DNA of 64,000 bases. Source: an uncultured Gemmatimonadales bacterium. Its GTDB lineage: Bacteria > Gemmatimonadota > Gemmatimonadetes > Gemmatimonadales > GWC2-71-9. The stretch covers positions 668,674 through 732,673 of the forward strand of contig CAWCFX010000001.1 in the NCBI GenBank assembly GCA_963795085.1, in the 5' to 3' direction. Every line of letters begins with the position of its first letter. Positions within the stretch are counted from its first letter, which is position 1. This document shows positions 4,348-16,804 of the stretch, piece by piece. The notes below the pieces were generated by a model, which had not been told where the DNA came from, made no database searches, and worked only from the letters and a program-made list of their open reading frames with translations. A program made the position numbers and the translations under genes.

Positions 4348-5895
4348 CTAGGGTTGCAGCTCCTGGGCAAGGAAGGCCAGGGTCGTGCAGCTCCCCGGCA
4401 TCGCCTGCGCGGTGGTCCCCAGGATCTGGAGGCTGTGGTCCAGGCCCTGGAGCGGGAGGTAAGTCGCCGGCACCCCGGCCAGGTTGAGCGCGGACTTGAG
4501 CCAGGAAGAATGGCTCGGCGGCACCACCGGGTCGGCGGTGCCGTGGATCAGCAGCGCCAGGGGGTCGCCCGCGCTTGTATGCTGAATCGGGGAAGCCTTG
4601 GCTGCCACCGACGGCACATTGGCGGGGTTCCCACCCAGGAAGTCGATCACCATCGGCAGGCTGGCGGACGGAAAATTACCGGTCTGGCGCAGGTCGGAGG
4701 CGCCGGCATAGGCGACGACCGCCTTGATCGTGATCATCGCGCCTGAGGTGCCGCAGGGCCCGTCGAGGGACGTGACGTTGGCAGCCAGGCCCATCAACTC
4801 GGCGAGATGCCCGCCGGCCGATACCCCGAGCGCGGCGCCCCGGTTAGGGTCAAGGCTGTAGCTGGAGGCGTTGGACCGGATCCACCGAAGCGCGCACCTG
4901 AGGTCCTGGATTGCCGCTGGGAACCGATTGGTGTTCCCGGACACGAGGCGGTAATTCACCGAGAGCGCGGTATAGCCCGCCGCCGCAAGCTGCAGAATCT
5001 CATTCCGTAGGCTGGATTTGTCTCCCTTGAACCACCCACCGCCATGCACGAGGATCACCACCGGGTGAACACCGGGGGTCTTGGGCCACGCCACGTCCAG
5101 TTTCTGGGGAACACCGCCGGTGGTGGTGTAGGTGACATCGGTCGCCAGGTTGACACTCCCGGCTGCCGGCACCGCCGGGATCGGGCAGTTGGTGACGACA
5201 CTGACGGCCTCGGCTGGATTCCGCACCGTGACCGTGGCCGTCTGGCTCAACGCCACGCCGTTTGCGGTGACGCTCAGGGTCCGGGTACCGGCCACGGTGG
5301 CGGAGAACCGTGCGGTTGTTATTCCGGACCCATCGGTCGGCGCCGGGGCGGTGATCTGGTTGCCCGTGCCAGTGGCGCTGACGGTGACCGCCGCGTTGAC
5401 AACAGGCTGGCCCCCGGCATCGCGCACGATAACCGTGACAATCGCGACCCCCGAATCCTGGGCGATGGACGACGGGTTGACGGTGATCGTAGATGCGGTC
5501 GCGCTGGGCGGGTTGGCGGCTCCACCCTGGAGCGTAATGGCGGCGGTGTCGGCCTTGCCGCCCGCGGTGGCGGTGATGAGGGCTTGCCCGCTGGTAGCCA
5601 GGCTGGTCACCCGGCCGCTACTGTTGACGGAAGCCCGCGCCGGGTGCAGCGACTGCCAGGCGACCCCCACGTTTGCGGGTGGGATGGTCTTTCCTGCCTG
5701 GTCCTTTACGCTAACGGTCAGGGTCACCGAACTGCCCTGTCCGACAATCGTGTCAGCGGCCGGAGTGACCCGGACCGCGCTGACGGTAACGGCCTGGGCA
5801 ATGACAGAGTGTGGCTCGGATGGTCCGCTACGGTCAGCGTTTTCACAGCCCAGCGCGGCTAGCGCAAGGCATACTGTGGCAATCTTTGAACCCAT
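4348..5895 (-). CDS. lipoprotein with N-terminal bacterial Ig-like (Big_2-type) repeats fused to an alpha/beta-hydrolase (esterase/lipase) domain
   Basis: Lipobox LAALGC. Repeated VTVSA/VTVTA Ig-like segments. Oxyanion motif VILVHGGGW and nucleophile elbow GVSAGGH (GxSxG). Confidence 0.75.
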   Translation of the reverse strand: MGSKIATVCLALAALGCENADRSGPSEPHSVIAQAVTVSAVRVTPAADTIVGQGSSVTLTVSVKDQAGKTIPPANVGVAWQSLHPARASVNSSGRVTSLATSGQALITATAGGKADTAAITLQGGAANPPSATASTITVNPSSIAQDSGVAIVTVIVRDAGGQPVVNAAVTVSATGTGNQITAPAPTDGSGITTARFSATVAGTRTLSVTANGVALSQTATVTVRNPAEAVSVVTNCPIPAVPAAGSVNLATDVTYTTTGGVPQKLDVAWPKTPGVHPVVILVHGGGWFKGDKSSLRNEILQLAAAGYTALSVNYRLVSGNTNRFPAAIQDLRCALRWIRSNASSYSLDPNRGAALGVSAGGHLAELMGLAANVTSLDGPCGTSGAMITIKAVVAYAGASDLRQTGNFPSASLPMVIDFLGGNPANVPSVAAKASPIQHTSAGDPLALLIHGTADPVVPPSHSSWLKSALNLAGVPATYLPLQGLDHSLQILGTTAQAMPGSCTTLAFLAQELQP

Positions 5896-12309: not shown

Positions 12310-12383
12310 TCGGGACGGCGGGATTTGAACCCGCGACCCCCTGAACCCCATTCAGGTGCGCTACCGGGCTGCGCTACGTCCCG
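12310..12383 (-). tRNA. tRNA-Pro (anticodon GGG)
   Basis: The minus strand reads CGGGACGTAGCGCAGCCCGGTAGCGCACCTGAATGGGGTTCAGGGGGTCGCGGGTTCAAATCCCGCCGTCCCGA. Acceptor stem is 7 bp (CGGGACG/CGTCCCG), D stem GCGC/GCGC, anticodon stem CCTGA/TCAGG. The loop AT-GGG-GT has T33 and G37, and the T arm is GCGGG-TTCAAAT-CCCGC. CCA is not encoded. Confidence 0.9.
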
Positions 12384-12391
12384 TGGAACAG

Positions 12392-12461
12392 CAGAGTGCA
12401 AAGTACAGAGTGCAAAGTACAGAGTGCAAAGGACAGAGTGCAGAGTGCAGAGTACAAGGTG
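12392..12461. repeat. tandem array of ten heptamers (CAGAGTG/CAAAGTA type; 14-bp super-unit CAGAGTGCAAAGTA)
   Basis: Read directly as cagagtg caaagta cagagtg caaagta cagagtg caaagga cagagtg cagagtg cagagta caaggtg. The array ends 8 nt from the mature 5' end of tRNA-Pro. Confidence 0.9.
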
Positions 12462-13212: not shown

Positions 13213-14520
13213 ATGACTGAGACCTCACCGAATCCAGACGCCCTCCTGGTGCGTGAGCTGGGCACCCGCCAGCTGGCCGCCGGCATTTTCAACTATGTCG
13301 TCGGGAGCGGCATTTTCGCCCTCCCCGCCATCGCGATGGGCATGCTGGGACCTGCGGCCCCGGTGGCCTACCTGGCCTGCGCCATCCTGATGGGCATGGT
13401 GGTGCTCTGCTTTGCGGAGGCAGGGAGCCGGGTGGTAGCGTCGGGGGGGCCGTATGCCTACGTCGAGGTGGCGCTGGGCCCGTTCGTCGGCTTCATGGCC
13501 GGCGCGCTCAACTATCTCACGCAGATCGCCGCGACGTCCGCGGTGACGGCCCTGCTCGCCGATTCGGTGGCCCGGCTGGCCGGCATTGAAGGATCGTTCG
13601 TCTTTCGCGCCGTGTTTGTGCTCGTCACCCTGGCCCTGCTCGCGTGGGTCAACATCCGCGGGGTCCGGACCGGCGCCCGGGTCCTGGAACTGGTGACGGT
13701 GGCTAAGCTGGTGCCGCTGGTGGGATTCGTCCTGATCGGAATGTTTTTCGCCGATGGTGGCAACCTCGGATGGACCGAGACTCCCAGCGTCAAAGGGGTG
13801 CTCGGCGCGGCGGGGATCCTGATCTTCGCCTTCGCCGGCATCGAAGGGGCGCTGGCGCCGAGCGGGGAACTGAAGGACCCAAACCGCACGGTGCCGCGGG
13901 CGGCGTTCCTTGCCCTGGGCCTGGTGACGGTACTGTATATCGCCATTCACCTGGTGGCCCAGGGGATCCTGGGGCCGGAGCTGGCCGTGGACAAAGTGAC
14001 CCCGCTCGCCACCGCGGCGGCCCGGTTCGCCGGTCCGGCGGGGTTCACGATCATGGTGGTGGCCGCGTCCATTTCCATGCTGGGACACACCAGCGGCGCC
14101 ATCCTGGCCACCCCGCGGATGCTGCTGGCCTTCGGCCGGGACGGTTTCATTCCCCGCTGGTTTGCCACGGTACATCCCCGCTTTCGCACTCCCCACGTCG
14201 CGATCGTGATCCACACCGCCGTGCTGGCCGTGGTGGCCCTCTCCGGCACCTTTGCCCAGCTGGCCATCCTCGCCAACGTCGCCGTACTGTCGCTCTATTT
14301 TCTCTGCGCGATCGCGGCCCTGGTGCTTCGGCGGCGGGACGTGCGGCAGAGCGGGGCACCGTTCGAAACGCCGGGCGGCCCCCTGGTCCCGATTCTTACC
14401 TGCGTTGCCATCACCTGGCTGCTCTGGGCCACCGTCACCCGCCGCGAATTCGTGGCCCTGGCCGCAGTGCTGGCGATCGCGGTGGTAATGTACGGGGTAC
14501 GCCGCGCGCGGGGGGCCTGA
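13213..14520 (+). CDS. APC-superfamily amino acid permease
   Basis: 435 aa and about 12 TM helices. The N-terminal RELGTRQLAAGIFNYVVGSGIFALP signature is typical of amino-acid/polyamine/organocation transporters. Confidence 0.8.
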   Translation: MTETSPNPDALLVRELGTRQLAAGIFNYVVGSGIFALPAIAMGMLGPAAPVAYLACAILMGMVVLCFAEAGSRVVASGGPYAYVEVALGPFVGFMAGALNYLTQIAATSAVTALLADSVARLAGIEGSFVFRAVFVLVTLALLAWVNIRGVRTGARVLELVTVAKLVPLVGFVLIGMFFADGGNLGWTETPSVKGVLGAAGILIFAFAGIEGALAPSGELKDPNRTVPRAAFLALGLVTVLYIAIHLVAQGILGPELAVDKVTPLATAAARFAGPAGFTIMVVAASISMLGHTSGAILATPRMLLAFGRDGFIPRWFATVHPRFRTPHVAIVIHTAVLAVVALSGTFAQLAILANVAVLSLYFLCAIAALVLRRRDVRQSGAPFETPGGPLVPILTCVAITWLLWATVTRREFVALAAVLAIAVVMYGVRRARGA

Positions 14521-14524
14521 TCTC

Positions 14525-14600
14525 CGTTCCCTTCCCTGTCGGGAAGGAGGTTGGGCTTCAAACTACCTAACCCCTACCCCCTTCCCTATTGGGAATGGGG
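14525..14600. repeat. left copy (inverted orientation) of the two-hairpin repeat module
   Basis: Hairpins are CCTTCCC-tgtc-GGGAAGG (14530-14547) and CCCCCTTCCC-tatt-GGGAATGGGG (14577-14600, one mismatch). The module overlaps the 3' end of the DUF559 ORF. Confidence 0.8.
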
Positions 14601-15018
14601 TTTGATCATCATCTGGATTGGGGAAGGGCACGTGGCTGACAGTCGGGTGATCCGCAGGCTTCTCGAATTGCCGCAACCACGACCTCCAGTCTTTCCAGGA
14701 CATCCAGGTGCTGAAGTGCACCACCCGGATGTGCCGTCGGCTTAGCGCGGCATCACGGTCACGATCATAGTCGCCTTGGTTGTCATGAATGTCGCCGTCC
14801 AGCTCGATGGCTAGCCGTGTGCTATGACAGTAAAAATCCACAATGAACCCGGCGATGACCTGCTGTCGACGAATGTGAAGCCCGCCAAGCTGATTGCGAC
14901 GGACCGCTTGCCACAGCGTCCGTTCGGCGGCCGTCATGTTTCGCCGAAGCTCCTTCGCGAGCTCGACCTTCGCGCGGTCCACTCGCTGGCCGATAATGAC
15001 ACGGTTGCTCTCCCGCAT
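14563..15018 (-). CDS. DUF559 endonuclease-domain protein (Vsr-like / PD-(D/E)xK fold)
   Basis: TAAERTLWQAVRRNQLGGLHIRRQQVIAGFIVDFYCHSTRLAIELDGDIHDNQGDYDRDRDAALSRRHIRVVHF is the classic DUF559 core. The C-terminal tail ...PFPIGKGVGVR is encoded by the flanking hairpin repeat. Confidence 0.8.
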   Translation of the reverse strand: MRESNRVIIGQRVDRAKVELAKELRRNMTAAERTLWQAVRRNQLGGLHIRRQQVIAGFIVDFYCHSTRLAIELDGDIHDNQGDYDRDRDAALSRRHIRVVHFSTWMSWKDWRSWLRQFEKPADHPTVSHVPFPNPDDDQTPFPIGKGVGVR

Positions 15019-15055
15019 GCCATAATCTGATCTGCATGCCAGCAGAAGTCGTCAT

Positions 15056-15290
15056 CCTTTTTCCGCAGAGCCCATGAATACCCCCTTCCCAGCAGGAAGG
15101 GGACAGGGGTAGCCAGGTCACGCACCCTTTGCCCGCGGAGCCTGTCAAAACCCCCTTCCCAGCAGGGAAGGGGGCTGGGGGTTAGGTCCTTCCCTGCAGC
15201 GAGGGGACGGGGTAGCAGGCCACGCATCTTTCTCCGCAGAGCCTATGAATACCCCCTTCCCAGCAGGGAAGGGGGCAGGGGGTGAGGTCC
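15056..15290. repeat. three tandem copies (about 70-100 bp each) of a GC-rich hairpin repeat
   Basis: Each unit starts ...TTTYYCCGCRGAGCCYRTSAAWA and carries CCCCCTTCCC-agca-GGGAAGGGGG. Perfect 10-bp stems lie at 15151-15174 and 15252-15275, with a slightly degenerate copy at 15081-15102. The middle unit has a second hairpin. Confidence 0.85.
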
Positions 15291-15409
15291 CCGCTTGCGC
15301 TCCTCCGAACCACCCTGCACACTCCCAGGGTGCAACCAAACGGCCGTCTGTTGCGTCTATAGGTTCAGCCGGCTGAGCCGCGCCCGGTTCATTTCCATCA
15401 GGATCCGAC

Positions 15410-16804
15410 ATGTCATTTCCCAATCCCGTCCGCCTGTTGAGGGCGGTTCGCTGGCCGCGTTCCCGGACCAACCGGGCGCTGCTCGTGGTCGGGGCGCTGG
15501 CCGTCCCCGGCGTCTGGCTCTTTGCCCGCAGCCCGGCCGCCTCCGATGCCTCGCTCGTCGCCCGGGTGAAGCACGGGAAGTTCACCCAGACCATCACCTC
15601 GAGCGGCGAGCTCCGGGCCCGCGAGTTCGTCGAGGTCACCGGGCCGGCGAACGCCCAGCAGGCCGGGGCCTACCAAATGAAGATTTCCTCGCTGGTGCCC
15701 GAGGGCACACTCGTCAACGCCGGCGATGTCGTCGCGGAACTGGACCGGTCCACCCTGGCGAATAAGCTCAACGAGGTCTCCCTCGCGCTTCAGAAGGCCC
15801 AGGCCCAGTACGAGCAGGCCATGCTCGATTCGACCCTCAATCTCTCTACCGCGCGCGAGAATATCCGCACCATGGAACTGACGCTGGAAGAGAAGCGGAT
15901 CGCGAAGGAGCAATCGGTGTACGAGGCGCCCTCGGTGCGGCGGCAGGCGGAGATCGACTACGAGAAGGCCGAGCGGGCGCTGGCCCAGGCCCGCTCCGAC
16001 TACGTCACCCGGGAGGAGCAGGCCAAGGCCAAGATGCGGGAGGTCGGCGCCGACCTGGCCCGGCAGCAGGGGCTGCTCAAGGTGGTGCAGGACGTGATGG
16101 AGGCCTTCACCATCCGGGCGCCCTCGGCGGGGATGGTGATCTACGTCAAGGAATGGAATGGCCGCAAGCGGACCTCGGGCTCCCAGGTCAGTTCCTGGGA
16201 CCCGGATGTCGCCACGCTTCCTGATCTCTCCCGCATGGAGTCGGTCACCTACGTCAACGAGATTGACGTCCGCCGGATCCAGGCCGGGCAGCCGGTCACC
16301 ATCACCCTGGATGCCGATCCCGCAAAGCGGCTGAACGGCACCGTGGCCGCGGTGGCCAACGTGGGCGAGCAGCGGCCCAATACCGACGCCAAGGTCTTCG
16401 AGGTGAAGGTCACCATCACCGAGTCCGACACCACCCTCCGCCCCGGGATGACCACCGGGAACTCGATTGAGACCTTCACCACCGATGACGTGCTGTTCGT
16501 GCCGCTCGAGGCGGTCAACAGCGAGAACGGGATTCCCTATGTGTACCGGGTGAACGGCGGCGGCATCGAGAAGCAGGAAGTGGTGACCGGCGCGCTCAAC
16601 GACGACGAGGTGATCATCGCGCAGGGTCTCACCCAGGACGACCAGGTCCTGCTCACGCCGCCCGCCGACGGAGGCCGTATGACCATCAAGCGGCTGCCCA
16701 ATTCTCCGGTTCCTCAGGCGCCCGACACCACCGCGCCCCCCGCCGGCGGCGACACCGCGGCCGGTCCCAGGCCGGTGGCGAATACCGGGCAGCGGGCTCC
16801 CTGA
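15410..16804 (+). CDS. efflux transporter periplasmic adaptor (HlyD/MacA membrane-fusion family)
   Basis: N-terminal TM anchor. Long coiled-coil region (LNEVSLALQKAQAQYEQAMLDS...EIDYEKAERALAQARSDY). A beta-barrel/lipoyl-like C-terminus typical of MFPs. Confidence 0.8.
   Translation: MSFPNPVRLLRAVRWPRSRTNRALLVVGALAVPGVWLFARSPAASDASLVARVKHGKFTQTITSSGELRAREFVEVTGPANAQQAGAYQMKISSLVPEGTLVNAGDVVAELDRSTLANKLNEVSLALQKAQAQYEQAMLDSTLNLSTARENIRTMELTLEEKRIAKEQSVYEAPSVRRQAEIDYEKAERALAQARSDYVTREEQAKAKMREVGADLARQQGLLKVVQDVMEAFTIRAPSAGMVIYVKEWNGRKRTSGSQVSSWDPDVATLPDLSRMESVTYVNEIDVRRIQAGQPVTITLDADPAKRLNGTVAAVANVGEQRPNTDAKVFEVKVTITESDTTLRPGMTTGNSIETFTTDDVLFVPLEAVNSENGIPYVYRVNGGGIEKQEVVTGALNDDEVIIAQGLTQDDQVLLTPPADGGRMTIKRLPNSPVPQAPDTTAPPAGGDTAAGPRPVANTGQRAP

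Follow-up and report, generated by a model that had tools for sequence, protein, structure and literature searches.

In the 64,000-nucleotide stretch of DNA that was analysed (the window), an open reading frame (ORF) for a DUF559 endonuclease lies between an APC permease gene on one side and an efflux operon on the other. It is the sole ORF there that is bracketed by short hairpin-forming repeats, which are designated here as 'intrastrand triplex motif' (TM) units. The features of the locus are as follows.

14528-14556, + strand: degenerate TM-type unit directly 3' of the permease stop codon (pyrimidine arm CCCTTCCC, loop TGTC, purine arm GGGAAGGA, degenerate G-box GGTTGGGC); the hairpin is present in the minimum-free-energy fold.
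14563-15018, - strand: DUF559 endonuclease ORF, 151 aa as read, Vsr-like PD-(D/E)xK type with an E-D-H-D motif.
14565-14600, + strand: left terminal half-module, inverted relative to the right-hand units (box ACCTAACCCC at 14565-14574, pyrimidine arm CCCCCTTCCC at 14577-14586, loop TATT, purine arm GGGAATGGGG at 14591-14600).
14640-14716, - strand: out-of-frame remnant of the C-terminal helix, LQHLDVLERLEVVVAAIREACGSPD, from three-frame translation.
15081-15112, + strand: TM-type unit copy 1, slightly degenerate (CCCCCTTCCC AGCA GGAAGGGG ACA GGGGTAG); it passes the test for a hairpin plus mirror third strand.
15084-15290, + strand: tandem array, 2.0 copies of a 101-nt period (TRF score 302, 84% matches).
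15151-15187, + strand: TM-type unit copy 2, intact (CCCCCTTCCC AGCA GGGAAGGGGG CTG GGGGGTTAGGT); right terminal half-module, inverted relative to 14565-14600.
15188-15221, + strand: degenerate TM-type unit (CCTTCCCTGCAGCGAGGGGACGGGGTAGCAGGCC) with a weak fold.
15252-15289, + strand: TM-type unit copy 3, intact (CCCCCTTCCC AGCA GGGAAGGGGG CAG GGGGGTGAGGTC), hairpin z -2.3.

A search of the whole window for the hairpin pattern CCCTTCCC-N4-GGGAAGGG, with up to two mismatches, returns five matches, starting at 14529, 14579, 15083, 15153 and 15254. All five cluster around the DUF559 ORF. Only 0.09 matches are expected, and none of 100 shuffles reaches five or more. Units to the left and right of the gene are inverted with respect to each other, and the inversion includes the non-palindromic flank GGGGTTAGGT / ACCTAACCCC. 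The arms at 14571-14603 and 15148-15180 are 85% complementary, and those at 14514-14548 and 15187-15221 are 74% complementary. A first-pass annotation, made from the letters of the sequence, had proposed such inverted modules together with extra tandem copies on the right, and both proposals are borne out. A 63-nt unit occurs there in three direct copies (15057, 15127 and 15228), and every unit of the 101-nt array contains one intact and one degenerate TM unit.

Two other descriptions in that annotation need adjustment. Each module was said to form two stable hairpins. The left 90 nt do fold well (-19.3 to -21.1 kcal/mol, z -3.9 for either strand), but they comprise parts of two units. Read on the + strand, one unit closes with the hairpin 14529-14548 and a degenerate G-box, and the next opens with ACCTAACCCC and the hairpin 14577-14600; the unit at 14528-14556 forms the right end of a neighbouring unit. 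On the right side, the second hairpin of the module (15188-15206) is weak, and 15127-15222 overall folds no better than shuffled sequences (z -0.3). The GC content of the island had been put at about 55%, below its flanks. The gene is indeed lower than the 67.5% of the entire window, but its actual value is 56-60% (59.7% for 14607-15018).

DUF559 is a very large protein family without an assigned function. The window ORF matches Pfam PF04480 over residues 18-103 (E 2.6e-27; score 95 bits, cut-off 20.6), NCBIfam PRK09767 at a score under the cut-off of that family (E 5.7e-16), and the structure PDB 3HRL (E 7e-12). A profile of its subfamily matches 3HRL with an E-value of 3e-28 and the homing endonuclease I-Bth0305I (3R3P) with an E-value of about 6e-4 (5.7e-4). 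The window protein keeps the catalytic core IVDFYCH..IELDGDIH..D, including the E, D, H and D of the ExDGxxH...D block (IELDGDIHDNQGDYD), and these four catalytic columns are invariant across 40 relatives. An exact look-up of the protein returned no record, and a search of viral contigs with a member of the subfamily returned no relatives.

This copy of the gene seems to be damaged. The Pfam match ends at profile position 89 of 109, short of a complete domain with an in-frame C-terminal helix. The helix typical of the family (HLDVLERLEVVVAAIREAC) can be read in another frame, from about 14712, in a three-frame translation. Because the helix is encoded in a different frame, the window ORF is probably frameshifted, or carries a short deletion, near 14712-14716. 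In an alignment to the ortholog P0014, the repaired ORF gives 126 aa versus 104 aa for the ORF as read. The half-module at 14565-14600 overlaps the last 11 codons and the stop codon of the ORF as read, and the C-terminal tail PFPIGKGVGVR is read from its hairpin, as had been noted at first. By the same reasoning, this tail is probably an accidental by-product of the frameshift. Pseudogenised DUF559 copies are also present at two other loci (L056 and L093), and DUF559 genes have a GC content lower than that of their flanks (median -4 points, p 0.0013). The window copy is best read as an old, decaying example of a widespread unit, in which a small Vsr-like DUF559 endonuclease gene lies within BoxC/PIT/TM-type repeats or directly next to them.

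The repeat is neither new nor confined to DUF559 genes. The window repeat is a BoxC / PIT / TM unit and belongs to a class that is already known. Bachellier-Hofnung and Hoyne-Maher reportedly described such repeats. Catalogues of them go back to the 1990s and take in E. coli, cyanobacteria, Neisseria, Pseudomonas and many other bacteria; neither an origin nor a function nor a partner protein is established (Holder et al. 2015, PMC4666352). Each unit has a C/T-rich and a G/A-rich arm separated by a loop, followed by a G-rich mirror box, and takes the form CCCCCTTCCC-N4-GGGAAGGGGG-N3-GGGGTTAGGT in this lineage. Published TM_ECO units share the pyrimidine arm, loop of 3-6 nt, purine arm, short loop and mirror G-rich third segment; the former are written CCCTCNCCC N3-6 GGGNGAGGG N3 GGGNGAGGG and those of the window lineage CCCCCTTCCC N4 GGGAAGGGGG N3 GGGGTTAGG (PMC4666352). 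The two sets also have in common an intergenic location, both orientations, inverted ('palindromic') pairs, occurrence in many phyla with an abundance in cyanobacteria, and rearrangement-prone loci. They differ in that the window variant has the core TTCC in place of the published TCNC. A resemblance of GGGTTAGG to telomere repeats was dismissed as coincidence.

Class membership was also assessed with a formal TM test, which calls for a pyrimidine arm, a loop, a complementary purine arm, a loop of at most 6 nt and a third segment that is the mirror image of the purine arm (G*G, A*A or T*A), using 8-nt arms and at most one mismatch per part. The sites at 15081-15112 and 15151-15184 pass, and five shuffled windows contain no passing site. 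The remaining three window units are degenerate versions in this test. Two inverted units make up a module of about 90 nt with the ends GACCTAACCCC ... GGGG(A/T)(G/T)AGGTC. Full inverted-pair modules of this kind could be aligned, and pairing is preserved through compensatory changes at 10 of 23 hairpin pairs. Modules occur in both orientations, in tandem arrays and also within coding sequences, and some copies are nested within the hairpin loops of others. Gene-less modules are dispersed and far outnumber gene copies. Among the matches listed, of which there are at least 120, the repeats are found in Chloroflexota, Cyanobacteria, Planctomycetes, Gemmatimonadales and other groups.

The ends of the modules raise the question of whether they could be integron attC-like sites with DUF559 as a gene cassette. 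The box ACCTAAC, and the right end GTTAGGT that is found in some copies, are compatible with the degenerate R'' (RYYYAAC) and R' (GTTRRRY) sequences. As in integrons, an imperfect palindrome lies 3' of a short, promoterless-looking ORF, and several ORFs begin a few nucleotides past one module and have their stop codon in the next. However, most full modules end in GAGAGGT and have no GTT. The units also form inverted halves around a gene, nested copies and gene-less tandem arrays with 18-30 nt spacing, and are mostly single. Gene lists of loci L001-L003 and L205-L209 contain no integrase, and cassette arrays were not seen. The attC reading was rejected on the arrangement of the units and the sequence of their right ends, and we assign it a probability close to nil.

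Physical linkage to TM-type units is nearly universal among the DUF559 genes of many phyla. A C/T-G/A hairpin is present within 250 nt upstream of the gene in all 70 metagenomic relatives with enough sequence, which are close relatives of one subfamily and may reflect shared ancestry instead of independent events. Hairpins are found downstream in 33 of 61, against a background of 0.21 per kb in the same contigs. Sites passing the formal TM test lie within 300 nt of the gene in 71 of 80 loci, compared to 0.045 per kb elsewhere. Of 16 distantly related DUF559 genes from annotated replicons, 15 have such hairpins nearby, among them E. coli ycjD. The latter gene has no unit upstream; it terminates in a degenerate unit, with a canonical TM_ECO about 165 nt further downstream.

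Viewed from the side of the repeats, the picture is different. Among the matches listed, 118 of 120 repeat-bearing 8-kb blocks, selected for the repeat, have no DUF559 gene, and the two DUF559 genes in the remainder both lie within 90 nt of a repeat. A lack of enrichment near DUF559 genes had been named in the first-pass annotation as an outcome that would speak against its proposal. Enrichment is extreme when viewed from the gene side (70 of 70), and this objection does not apply.

The arrangement of gene and repeats varies. Some genes have an upstream module only, some have direct full modules on both sides, some are flanked by inverted halves, and E. coli has a unit downstream only. The layout of box and hairpin, gene, then hairpin and box recurs at L205 (an ortholog of the window locus), at L093 and in Deinococcus, Sphingomonas, Sinorhizobium and others, in agreement with the TIR-like architecture first suggested. 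At L001 and L129 the gene resides in module linkers or between tandem modules, with near-identical direct flanking modules. In one clade, a conserved module with a long linker of about 70 nt lies upstream of the gene and the downstream module is absent. Half-modules may also surround an unrelated gene, as at L059, where they flank an ordinary peptidase gene.

The junction between gene and repeat is a fixed one at some loci. At 17 of 80, the terminal box supplies the DUF559 stop codon (ACC TAA CCCC). Solitary modules (117) show no frame preference as suppliers of a stop codon for an upstream gene (13 versus 16 and 15), so the stop-in-box junction is specific to DUF559. The odd Pro/Gly-rich ends of DUF559 proteins (..SPSLxGKGPGVRS, ..PTPFPAREGGA, ..GPNP, ..NLTP, ..T*) are encoded by the repeat, and the early suggestion that such termini derive from hairpin repeats is supported in these relatives.

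One reading of this linkage gives the modules a cis-regulatory role for DUF559, as RNA or DNA elements such as a 5' UTR structure, promoter, terminator or mRNA stabiliser, comparable to some REPs, and takes copies elsewhere to be unrelated uses of one stable hairpin. The constant presence of an upstream module in the subfamily, often ending only 5-70 nt before the start codon, and the compensatory changes that maintain hairpin pairing are in its favour. Yet a pattern scan of 14400-15450 found no sigma-70-like promoter or intrinsic terminator. Rfam searches with the window region and five full-module loci, at E-values up to 1, returned chance miRNA-like matches only and no family. In E. coli, PIT/BoxC elements acted neither as promoters nor as terminators (PMC4666352, citing its ref. 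41), and ycjD does without an upstream unit. Modules that are nested, in tandem, in either orientation or inside coding sequences also fit poorly, and a regulatory role is very improbable as the explanation.

Comparison of orthologous sites reveals gene-plus-repeat insertions that some genomes have and others lack. The first-pass annotation had recommended such a comparison for the permease locus, where the block is indeed polymorphic among related genomes. L205 carries box, hairpin, DUF559, hairpin and box, with the box, hairpin and TATT loop of the left half-module of the window at the orthologous position. L208 has two abutted boxes and nothing else, and L209 has neither gene nor boxes. On a Synechocystis plasmid, a unit lies within a DUF1156 coding sequence, both halves of which align to an intact homolog. 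Further DUF559 genes reside between sufB and sufC, between paaD and paaZ and within an hpa operon, and these single genes wedged into operons are likely to be insertions. The E. coli gene is similarly patchy, being present in 3375 of 5426 genomes, and TM is found at the sapF-fabI locus only together with ycjD. Target-site duplications, which had also been suggested as a check, were not seen at any of ten element ends (L224, L221, L228, L205, L093 and the window), a small set that lacks close empty sites. Recent identical copies were not seen either.

The near-obligate linkage suggests that the DUF559 nuclease is the missing protein partner of BoxC/PIT/TM repeats. A partnership of nuclease and repeat, resembling either the REPIN-RAYT systems or homing endonucleases, is a reading that we judge to be evenly poised between right and wrong. 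The nuclease would recognise the folded or duplex repeat and nick or cut there. Host repair or replication would then copy the flanked gene to new sites, and gene-less inverted pairs could be copied in trans. Such a system may be likened to REPIN-RAYT, or to a free-standing homing endonuclease that brings its own portable homology arms. The linkage in 70 of 70 genes, the fixed stop/box junction, the insertions, the nested repeat copies, the pseudogenised copies, the low GC content, the compensatory changes in the hairpins and the nuclease match are all in agreement with it. A bolder version, in which YcjD-type endonucleases, acting in a structure- or sequence-specific way, have created the repeats and carried both them and themselves across phyla, is plausible but falls somewhat short of an even chance. 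The linkage itself is directly observed, whereas mobilisation of the repeats by DUF559 is inferred.

Several observations do not sit easily with a partnership. Because 118 of the 120 listed blocks have no DUF559 gene, and E. coli strains without ycjD retain TM copies elsewhere in their genomes, the repeats must persist without a nearby partner gene and perhaps without any. The heterogeneity of the layouts indicates that one simple transposition mechanism is insufficient. The half-modules around the peptidase gene of L059, the lack of target-site duplications at the ends inspected and the lack of recent identical copies also count against it. Holder et al. saw no genes for mobility in the neighbourhood of TM_ECO sites. 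Triplex formation was demonstrated in vitro, for TM_ECO alone, and went undetected in vivo (PMC4666352).

A rival reading casts DUF559 as a free-standing endonuclease gene of the homing type, parasitic on TM/BoxC repeats that were already present and would be independent of it in origin and spread. The repeats would offer the gene no more than a target and ready-made homology arms, and it would thereby come to lie in or beside them. Its presence in module linkers or between tandem modules with near-identical direct flanks (L001 and L129), the great excess of solitary modules over genes, the TM copies of ycjD-less E. coli and the absence of target-site duplications are consistent with this proposal, as is the profile kinship to I-Bth0305I (PMC3239194). 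This prototype of the EDxHD (Vsr-like) homing endonucleases (3R3P) shares the fold and catalytic residues of DUF559 (PMC3239194), and both are selfish genes with presence/absence polymorphism. I-Bth0305I differs in having NUMOD/HTH DNA-binding domains and in residing in a group I intron of phage recA (PMC3239194), whereas the DUF559 proteins here are about 125 aa long, free-standing, without NUMOD/HTH and found among repeats.

The sites where no repeat preceded the gene are difficult for the homing proposal. Strains of E. coli that lack ycjD have no TM at sapF-fabI, so TM must have arrived there together with the gene. The DUF1156 insertion takes the place of a linker without TM in the intact homolog examined, and the upstream module with its 70-nt linker in one clade resembles a co-inherited unit and not a target. 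Homing into existing repeats is unlikely on this evidence, though it commands more weight than the other alternatives considered here.

A further alternative is that TM is unstable, recombination-prone DNA (H-DNA or cruciform) that traps small genes, with DUF559 acting as a host structure-specific repair nuclease and neither component mobilising the other; regulation or history would account for the position of its gene near the repeats. Vsr itself is a repair nickase. The half-modules around the ordinary gene of L059 speak for this alternative, and the window has undergone local tandem amplification and an apparent deletion of a repeat-adjacent gene. TM loci are rearranged more between E. coli strains (PMC4666352). 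Instability does not account for the near-obligate adjacency (70 of 70) and the fixed junction of stop codon and box, however, nor for units inserted within coding sequences and operons. Also left unexplained are the patchy presence of DUF559 genes, their lower GC content and their frequent pseudogenisation, and this alternative is rather improbable.

The partnership of nuclease and repeat can be compared to mobile systems that have similar anatomy. The first-pass annotation called the locus REPtron-like, and its anatomy fits this description. REP and REPIN-RAYT systems also have short palindromic units with a conserved non-palindromic end (PMC3116915, PMC3337134). Their dispersed, gene-less form is an inverted doublet, as it is here, where gene-less inverted pairs exceed genes, and a low-copy nuclease gene may lie between inverted units, as in the window, L205, L093, Deinococcus and Sinorhizobium. 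As in those systems, target-site duplications were not seen here, and repeat type tracks protein lineage. The label fails for the molecules themselves. The nuclease is a Vsr-like PD-(D/E)xK enzyme and not an HUH/Y1 transposase of the IS200/IS605 type, and the units are polypyrimidine/polypurine mirror repeats and not GTAG-type REPs. In addition, the near-identical repeat sequence spans phyla, and the genes appear to be horizontally mobile and in many cases degraded, whereas RAYTs are single-copy and vertically kept. MITEs and their autonomous IS or transposon parents likewise have terminal inverted repeats around one ORF and many short gene-less derivatives with two ends. They differ from the units here, which have no DDE or serine/tyrosine transposase, no target-site duplication at the ends inspected and, in some cases, direct flanking modules.

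The history of the window can be reconstructed tentatively along these lines. Arrival of the unit between the APC permease and the efflux operon would predate the split from the L205 lineage. After that arrival the reading frame was probably lost, near codon 103, and the right-hand unit expanded into the array of two 101-nt copies. This array occupies the position where relatives have an Amidohydro_2 gene, which in L205, L208 and L209 lies between the equivalent position and the MFP gene. The Amidohydro_2 neighbour was probably deleted through recombination between repeat units. L209 has a solitary TM immediately upstream of its MFP gene.

The value of these observations lies in the family-wide pattern, of which the window copy is merely a decayed example. 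Near-obligate linkage provides a candidate explanation for both the BoxC/PIT/TM repeats and DUF559, as the discovery of RAYTs did for REP sequences. Published work on these repeats has named no protein or mobility gene, whereas here the units are tied to DUF559. The linkage appears to be undescribed so far: in the literature on DUF559/ycjD and on BoxC/PIT/TM repeats, no paper was found that connects the two. The text of the TM study mentions neither DUF559, endonuclease nor ycjD (PMC4666352), and a full-text literature search for box and hairpin strings of the window's lineage gave nothing relevant. If the bolder version of the partnership is right, it would be a second, independently evolved system of the REPIN-RAYT kind, built from a Vsr-fold nuclease and mirror-repeat DNA, and it would account for the genomic instability reported at TM sites. 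E. coli K-12, with a single ycjD and only 23 copies of TM_ECO, that is, of BoxC (PMC4666352), makes the question directly testable. For genome annotation, read-through of the repeat is the source of many odd protein ends rich in Pro and Gly and of many short hypothetical ORFs (PSP..GEG.G, SPSL.GKGPGVRS).

The DUF559 open reading frame (ORF) of the window belongs to PF04480 and is enclosed by two genes:

13213-14520, APC-family permease gene, neighbour of the DUF559 ORF
14563-15018, minus strand, DUF559 ORF of 151 amino acids (PF04480, E = 2.6e-27)
15410-16804, membrane-fusion protein (MFP) gene, neighbour on the other side

Searching the whole 64-kb window with up to two mismatches places the hairpin CCCTTCCC-N4-GGGAAGGG at 14529, 14579, 15083, 15153 and 15254. 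All five sites are confined to the DUF559 locus, where 0.09 are expected and no shuffle gives five. The first-pass annotation had described inverted repeat copies flanking the gene. A repeat finder recovers this arrangement (pairs I1-I3, left copy inverted relative to the right copies), and the inversion extends to non-palindromic flank (ACCTAACCCC on the left, GGGGTTAGGT on the right). The tandem organization reported for the right side is also found, as a 63-nt unit present three times in direct orientation (family D1) and as an array of 2.0 copies with a 101-nt period (TRF). Stable hairpins had been claimed for each module; folding of the left 90 nt goes far beyond that of shuffles (z = -3.9), but the second hairpin on the right is weak. 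The gene is indeed lower in GC than the whole window (67.5%), although at 56-60% rather than about 55%. DUF559 genes in general have, on average, a GC content 3-4 points lower than that of the sequence around them (n = 46, p = 0.0013).

Judged from its reading frames, the window ORF is probably broken. Its Pfam match ends at profile position 89 of 109, and the C-terminal helix of the family (..HLDVLERLEVVVAAIREAC..) can be read on the same strand in a different frame, from near 14712. Repairing the ORF there extends the alignment to the ortholog P0014 from 104 to 126 residues. The tail PFPIGKGVGVR is read from the hairpin, as first proposed, but most likely as a by-product of a frameshift through which translation enters the repeat. 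Pseudogenes also occur at loci L056 and L093. The catalytic block IELDGDIH..D is intact in the window copy, and E71, D73, H77 and D84 are invariant in a profile of 40 subfamily members that matches PDB 3HRL (E = 3e-28) and 3R3P (E = 5.7e-4). YcjD of E. coli is a Vsr-like PD-(D/E)xK nuclease by long-standing prediction (PMC1189080).

Most of the 120 homologs listed are about 125 amino acids long and end in ..ACxExT, and other tails are common among them (SPSLxGKGPGVRS, PTPFPAREGGA, PFPIGKGDR, GPNPRPLP, NLTP). At three of three loci read directly (L001-L003), like elements lie on both sides of the gene, and the full module is GACCTAACCCC-nn-CCCCCTTCCC-loop-GGGAAGGGGG-AG-linker-CTCCCCTCTCC-loop-GGAGAGGGG-yy-GGGGGAGAGGTC. 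Its sequence accounts for the odd Pro/Gly-rich termini, which had been suspected of being repeat-encoded: GGA CCT AAC CCC reads G-P-N-P, AAC CTA ACC CC reads N-L-T-P, and G ACC TAA gives the common ...T-stop ending.

Viewed from the gene's side, the linkage between DUF559 and the repeat is near-obligate. A metagenome scan yielded 80 DUF559 loci, all relatives of one subfamily. An upstream C/T-G/A hairpin is present in 70 of the 70 loci with at least 250 nt of upstream sequence and a downstream one in 33 of 61, against a background of 0.21 per kb in the remainder of those contigs; in 17 of the 80, the terminal box contains the stop codon of the gene. The enrichment persists under a formal test for triplex motifs (TM; 8-nt arms plus a mirror third segment, at most one mismatch per part), with a site within 300 nt in 71 of the 80 loci and 0.045 per kb elsewhere. 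In the window, two units pass this test, versus no sites in five shuffles. Layouts vary. The gene may follow a full module, lie between full modules in direct orientation (at times near-identical, linker included, as at L129), or be enclosed in the inverted form box-hairpin, gene, hairpin-box seen in the window. At L126 (2760-2960, 3450-3491), about 42 nt of the downstream gene's start (ATGTTCA.CGAAGCC.ACACCGTCGAAGACTTCAGGCGACC) are repeated upstream of the DUF559 unit, fused to a module, which hints that flanking host sequence was duplicated on insertion.

The linkage reaches well beyond the window's subfamily. Of 16 more distantly related DUF559 genes, all on annotated replicons, 15 have such hairpins within 250 nt, from Deinococcus (four), Azospirillum (two), three cyanobacteria, Sphingomonas, Sphingobium, Sinorhizobium, Methylobacterium, Photobacterium, Neisseria gonorrhoeae and E. 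coli; the only one lacking a hairpin, on a P. aeruginosa plasmid, is a partial match. Repeat type varies by lineage, for example CCTCTCTCCC..GGGAGAGAG-CTA-GAGAGAGGG in Neisseria and TCCCCC..GGGGG-CTAGGGGG in Picosynechococcus and Pseudanabaena. Flanking units in Deinococcus and Sinorhizobium are inverted, the inverted repeat reaching 18-35 nt further out, and no target-site duplication is visible at them. In Photobacterium sp. GJ3 (L225, around 2368-2538 and beyond), 17 more C/T-G/A hairpins (CCTCCCCCTTGAAAAGGGGGAGGGATTGATCGAGC..) form a dense local array within 3.4 kb of DUF559.

The repeat itself belongs to a known class. Searches with E. coli-type variant strings led to Holder et al. 2015 (PMC4666352) and so to the BoxC repeats known from the 1990s, which Hoyne and Maher called PIT elements and which also go by the name "intrastrand triplex motifs"; the E. 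coli consensus, TM_ECO, is CCCTCNCCC N3-6 GGGNGAGGG N3 GGGNGAGGG. That paper puts these repeats in over 260 genomes, with very high abundance in cyanobacteria, enterobacteria and Neisseria, and describes inverted pairs as well. Loci carrying them are rearranged between strains, and the authors found no mobility functions nearby. The triplex forms in vitro and was undetected in vivo, and the repeats lack promoter or terminator activity (PMC4666352). On first reading, the cassette was not known to have been described as mobile or self-propagating. Its repeat is not new, but the words DUF559, endonuclease and ycjD are absent from the paper by Holder et al., and in open-access text no prior mention of the linkage was found; an earlier one may exist.

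A one-genome-per-species scan with the pattern GACCTAACCCC-N2-5-CCCCTTCCC returned at least 120 stretches. The matches listed come from Chloroflexota, many cyanobacteria, Planctomycetes, delta-proteobacterial MAGs, Binatia, Gemmatimonadales, Armatimonadota, Thermotogae, Acetothermia and others. Among them the repeat is far commoner than the gene, gene-less copies outnumbering gene copies: just two of 120 8-kb blocks contain a DUF559 ORF, both with the repeat within 90 nt. Dispersed copies are full two-hairpin modules. In the consensus of 30 aligned modules, a short CCC/GGG stem closes the two hairpins, with compensatory pairing (both sides changed) in 10 of 23 pairs; no Rfam family matches it. 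Some copies are nested, a second TM-type unit occupying the loop of the first hairpin (L012, L083, L091, L121, L122). Unrelated extra hairpins are inserted in the box-hairpin interval (L137) or the loop (L088, L093, L037). In Nostoc (L008, L027, L030, L077, L092, L103, L110 and others), the module occupies the middle of a larger palindromic element that runs from TATAGCGGTTCTC to GAGAACCGCTATA and looks like a MITE that captured, or was invaded by, the module. In a Candidatus Binatus MAG (L059, 4354-5202), inverted half-modules (GACCTAACCCCTAA-hairpin and hairpin-TTA-GGGGTTAGGTC) enclose an ordinary pyroglutamyl-peptidase-like ORF of 205 amino acids, so that genes other than DUF559 can also lie in such a bracket.

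Units of gene plus repeat are polymorphic for insertion and leave no visible target duplications. Presence and absence of the block in the permease-MFP interval are found at orthologous loci identified through permease homologs of 83-86% identity. Three relatives (L205-L207) read permease-TAG, ACCTAACCCCCCAA-hairpin (TATT loop)-DUF559 (minus)-hairpin-TTT-GGGGGTTAGGT, TGAATCCC.., then Amidohydro_2 and the MFP gene, and the window has the L205 insertion in common (same box, same TATT loop). A fourth, L208, lacks DUF559 and has just GACCTAACCCCCAGGGGTGAGGT before the same TGAATCCCC. There (4800-4825) two terminal boxes abut as a 22-bp palindrome (ACCTAACCCCC A GGGGTGAGGT), through which the permease ORF runs to a TGA in the right box; this may be a footprint, a minimal element or a target. 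L209 has neither box and carries an ordinary hairpin in their place. Amidohydro_2 precedes the MFP gene in L205, L208 and L209 and is absent from the window (15291-15409). It would have been lost in the window's lineage by deletion between two direct repeat units, since L209 has a solitary TM unit (CCCCCTTTCC AATA GGGAAGGGGG ACA GGGGGTTAGGT) immediately upstream of TGCAACCAAA..GCGTCTATAGGT, a conserved stretch that precedes the MFP gene.

Insertion also interrupts a coding sequence. The plasmid CP101712.1 of Synechocystis sp. B12 (L210, 2900-3420) has a 504-nt box-hairpin-DUF559-hairpin-box unit within a DUF1156 gene, and both parts of that gene can be aligned, in a single frame, with an uninterrupted homolog from Planktothrix (..EIGDLYPEI[29 aa]LTPVAYLWTRTVKCPNP..). 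This Zn-ribbon methylase-like gene is frameshifted upstream too, and a second full module, gene-less, sits at the end of the downstream DUF1156 fragment (4775-4860). On Picosynechococcus PCC 7002 pAQ6 (L214), a DUF559 gene is immediately upstream of a DUF1156 gene. Lone DUF559 genes occur inside operons (L213, L224, L221, L212, L223), with examples in the sufB/sufC interval of Sphingomonas, the paaD/paaZ interval of Deinococcus psychrotolerans, between acyl-CoA carboxylase genes in Sphingobium, and at two different places in the hpa operons of two Deinococcus species.

In E. coli, the ycjD segment is present in 3375 of 5426 complete genomes, and the remainder carry eefRABCD at the site (PMC12817139). 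The ..RRSPSP-stop end of ycjD falls within a degenerate pyrimidine arm; beyond it, in the sapF-ycjD-fabI locus (L218, 1000-1260), come a partial copy, about 50 nt, of the gene's own 3' end and, about 165 nt downstream of ycjD, a canonical TM_ECO. K-12 has 23 copies, which puts the probability that one falls within 250 nt at about 0.0025. The TM adjoining fabI is absent from the one eef-carrying strain examined, and therefore arrived with ycjD. Some strains have IS1 insertions within ycjD (H57-H59).

We infer that the DUF559 nuclease would act on the repeat and in this way drive copying both of the unit of gene plus repeat and of inverted pairs without a gene. The chief competing reading is that the repeats arose independently and the gene does no more than parasitise them; against it, a small sample, the E. 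coli and DUF1156 loci, argues for a joint arrival of gene and repeat. Less consistent with the observations are an integron-like reading, a purely regulatory role, and a role of DUF559 as a host repair nuclease for unstable DNA. The likeness to a REPtron noted at first sight is functional: the unit resembles REPIN-RAYT systems (PMC3116915) but is not a member, since its defining protein differs. It likewise recalls a homing endonuclease with portable homology arms, again without membership by defining protein.

Elsewhere in the window, a minus-strand tRNA-Pro (GGG) gene at 12310-12383 has right beside it, at 12392-12457, a 14-nt unit (CAGAGTGCAAAGTA) repeated 4.7 times in tandem.
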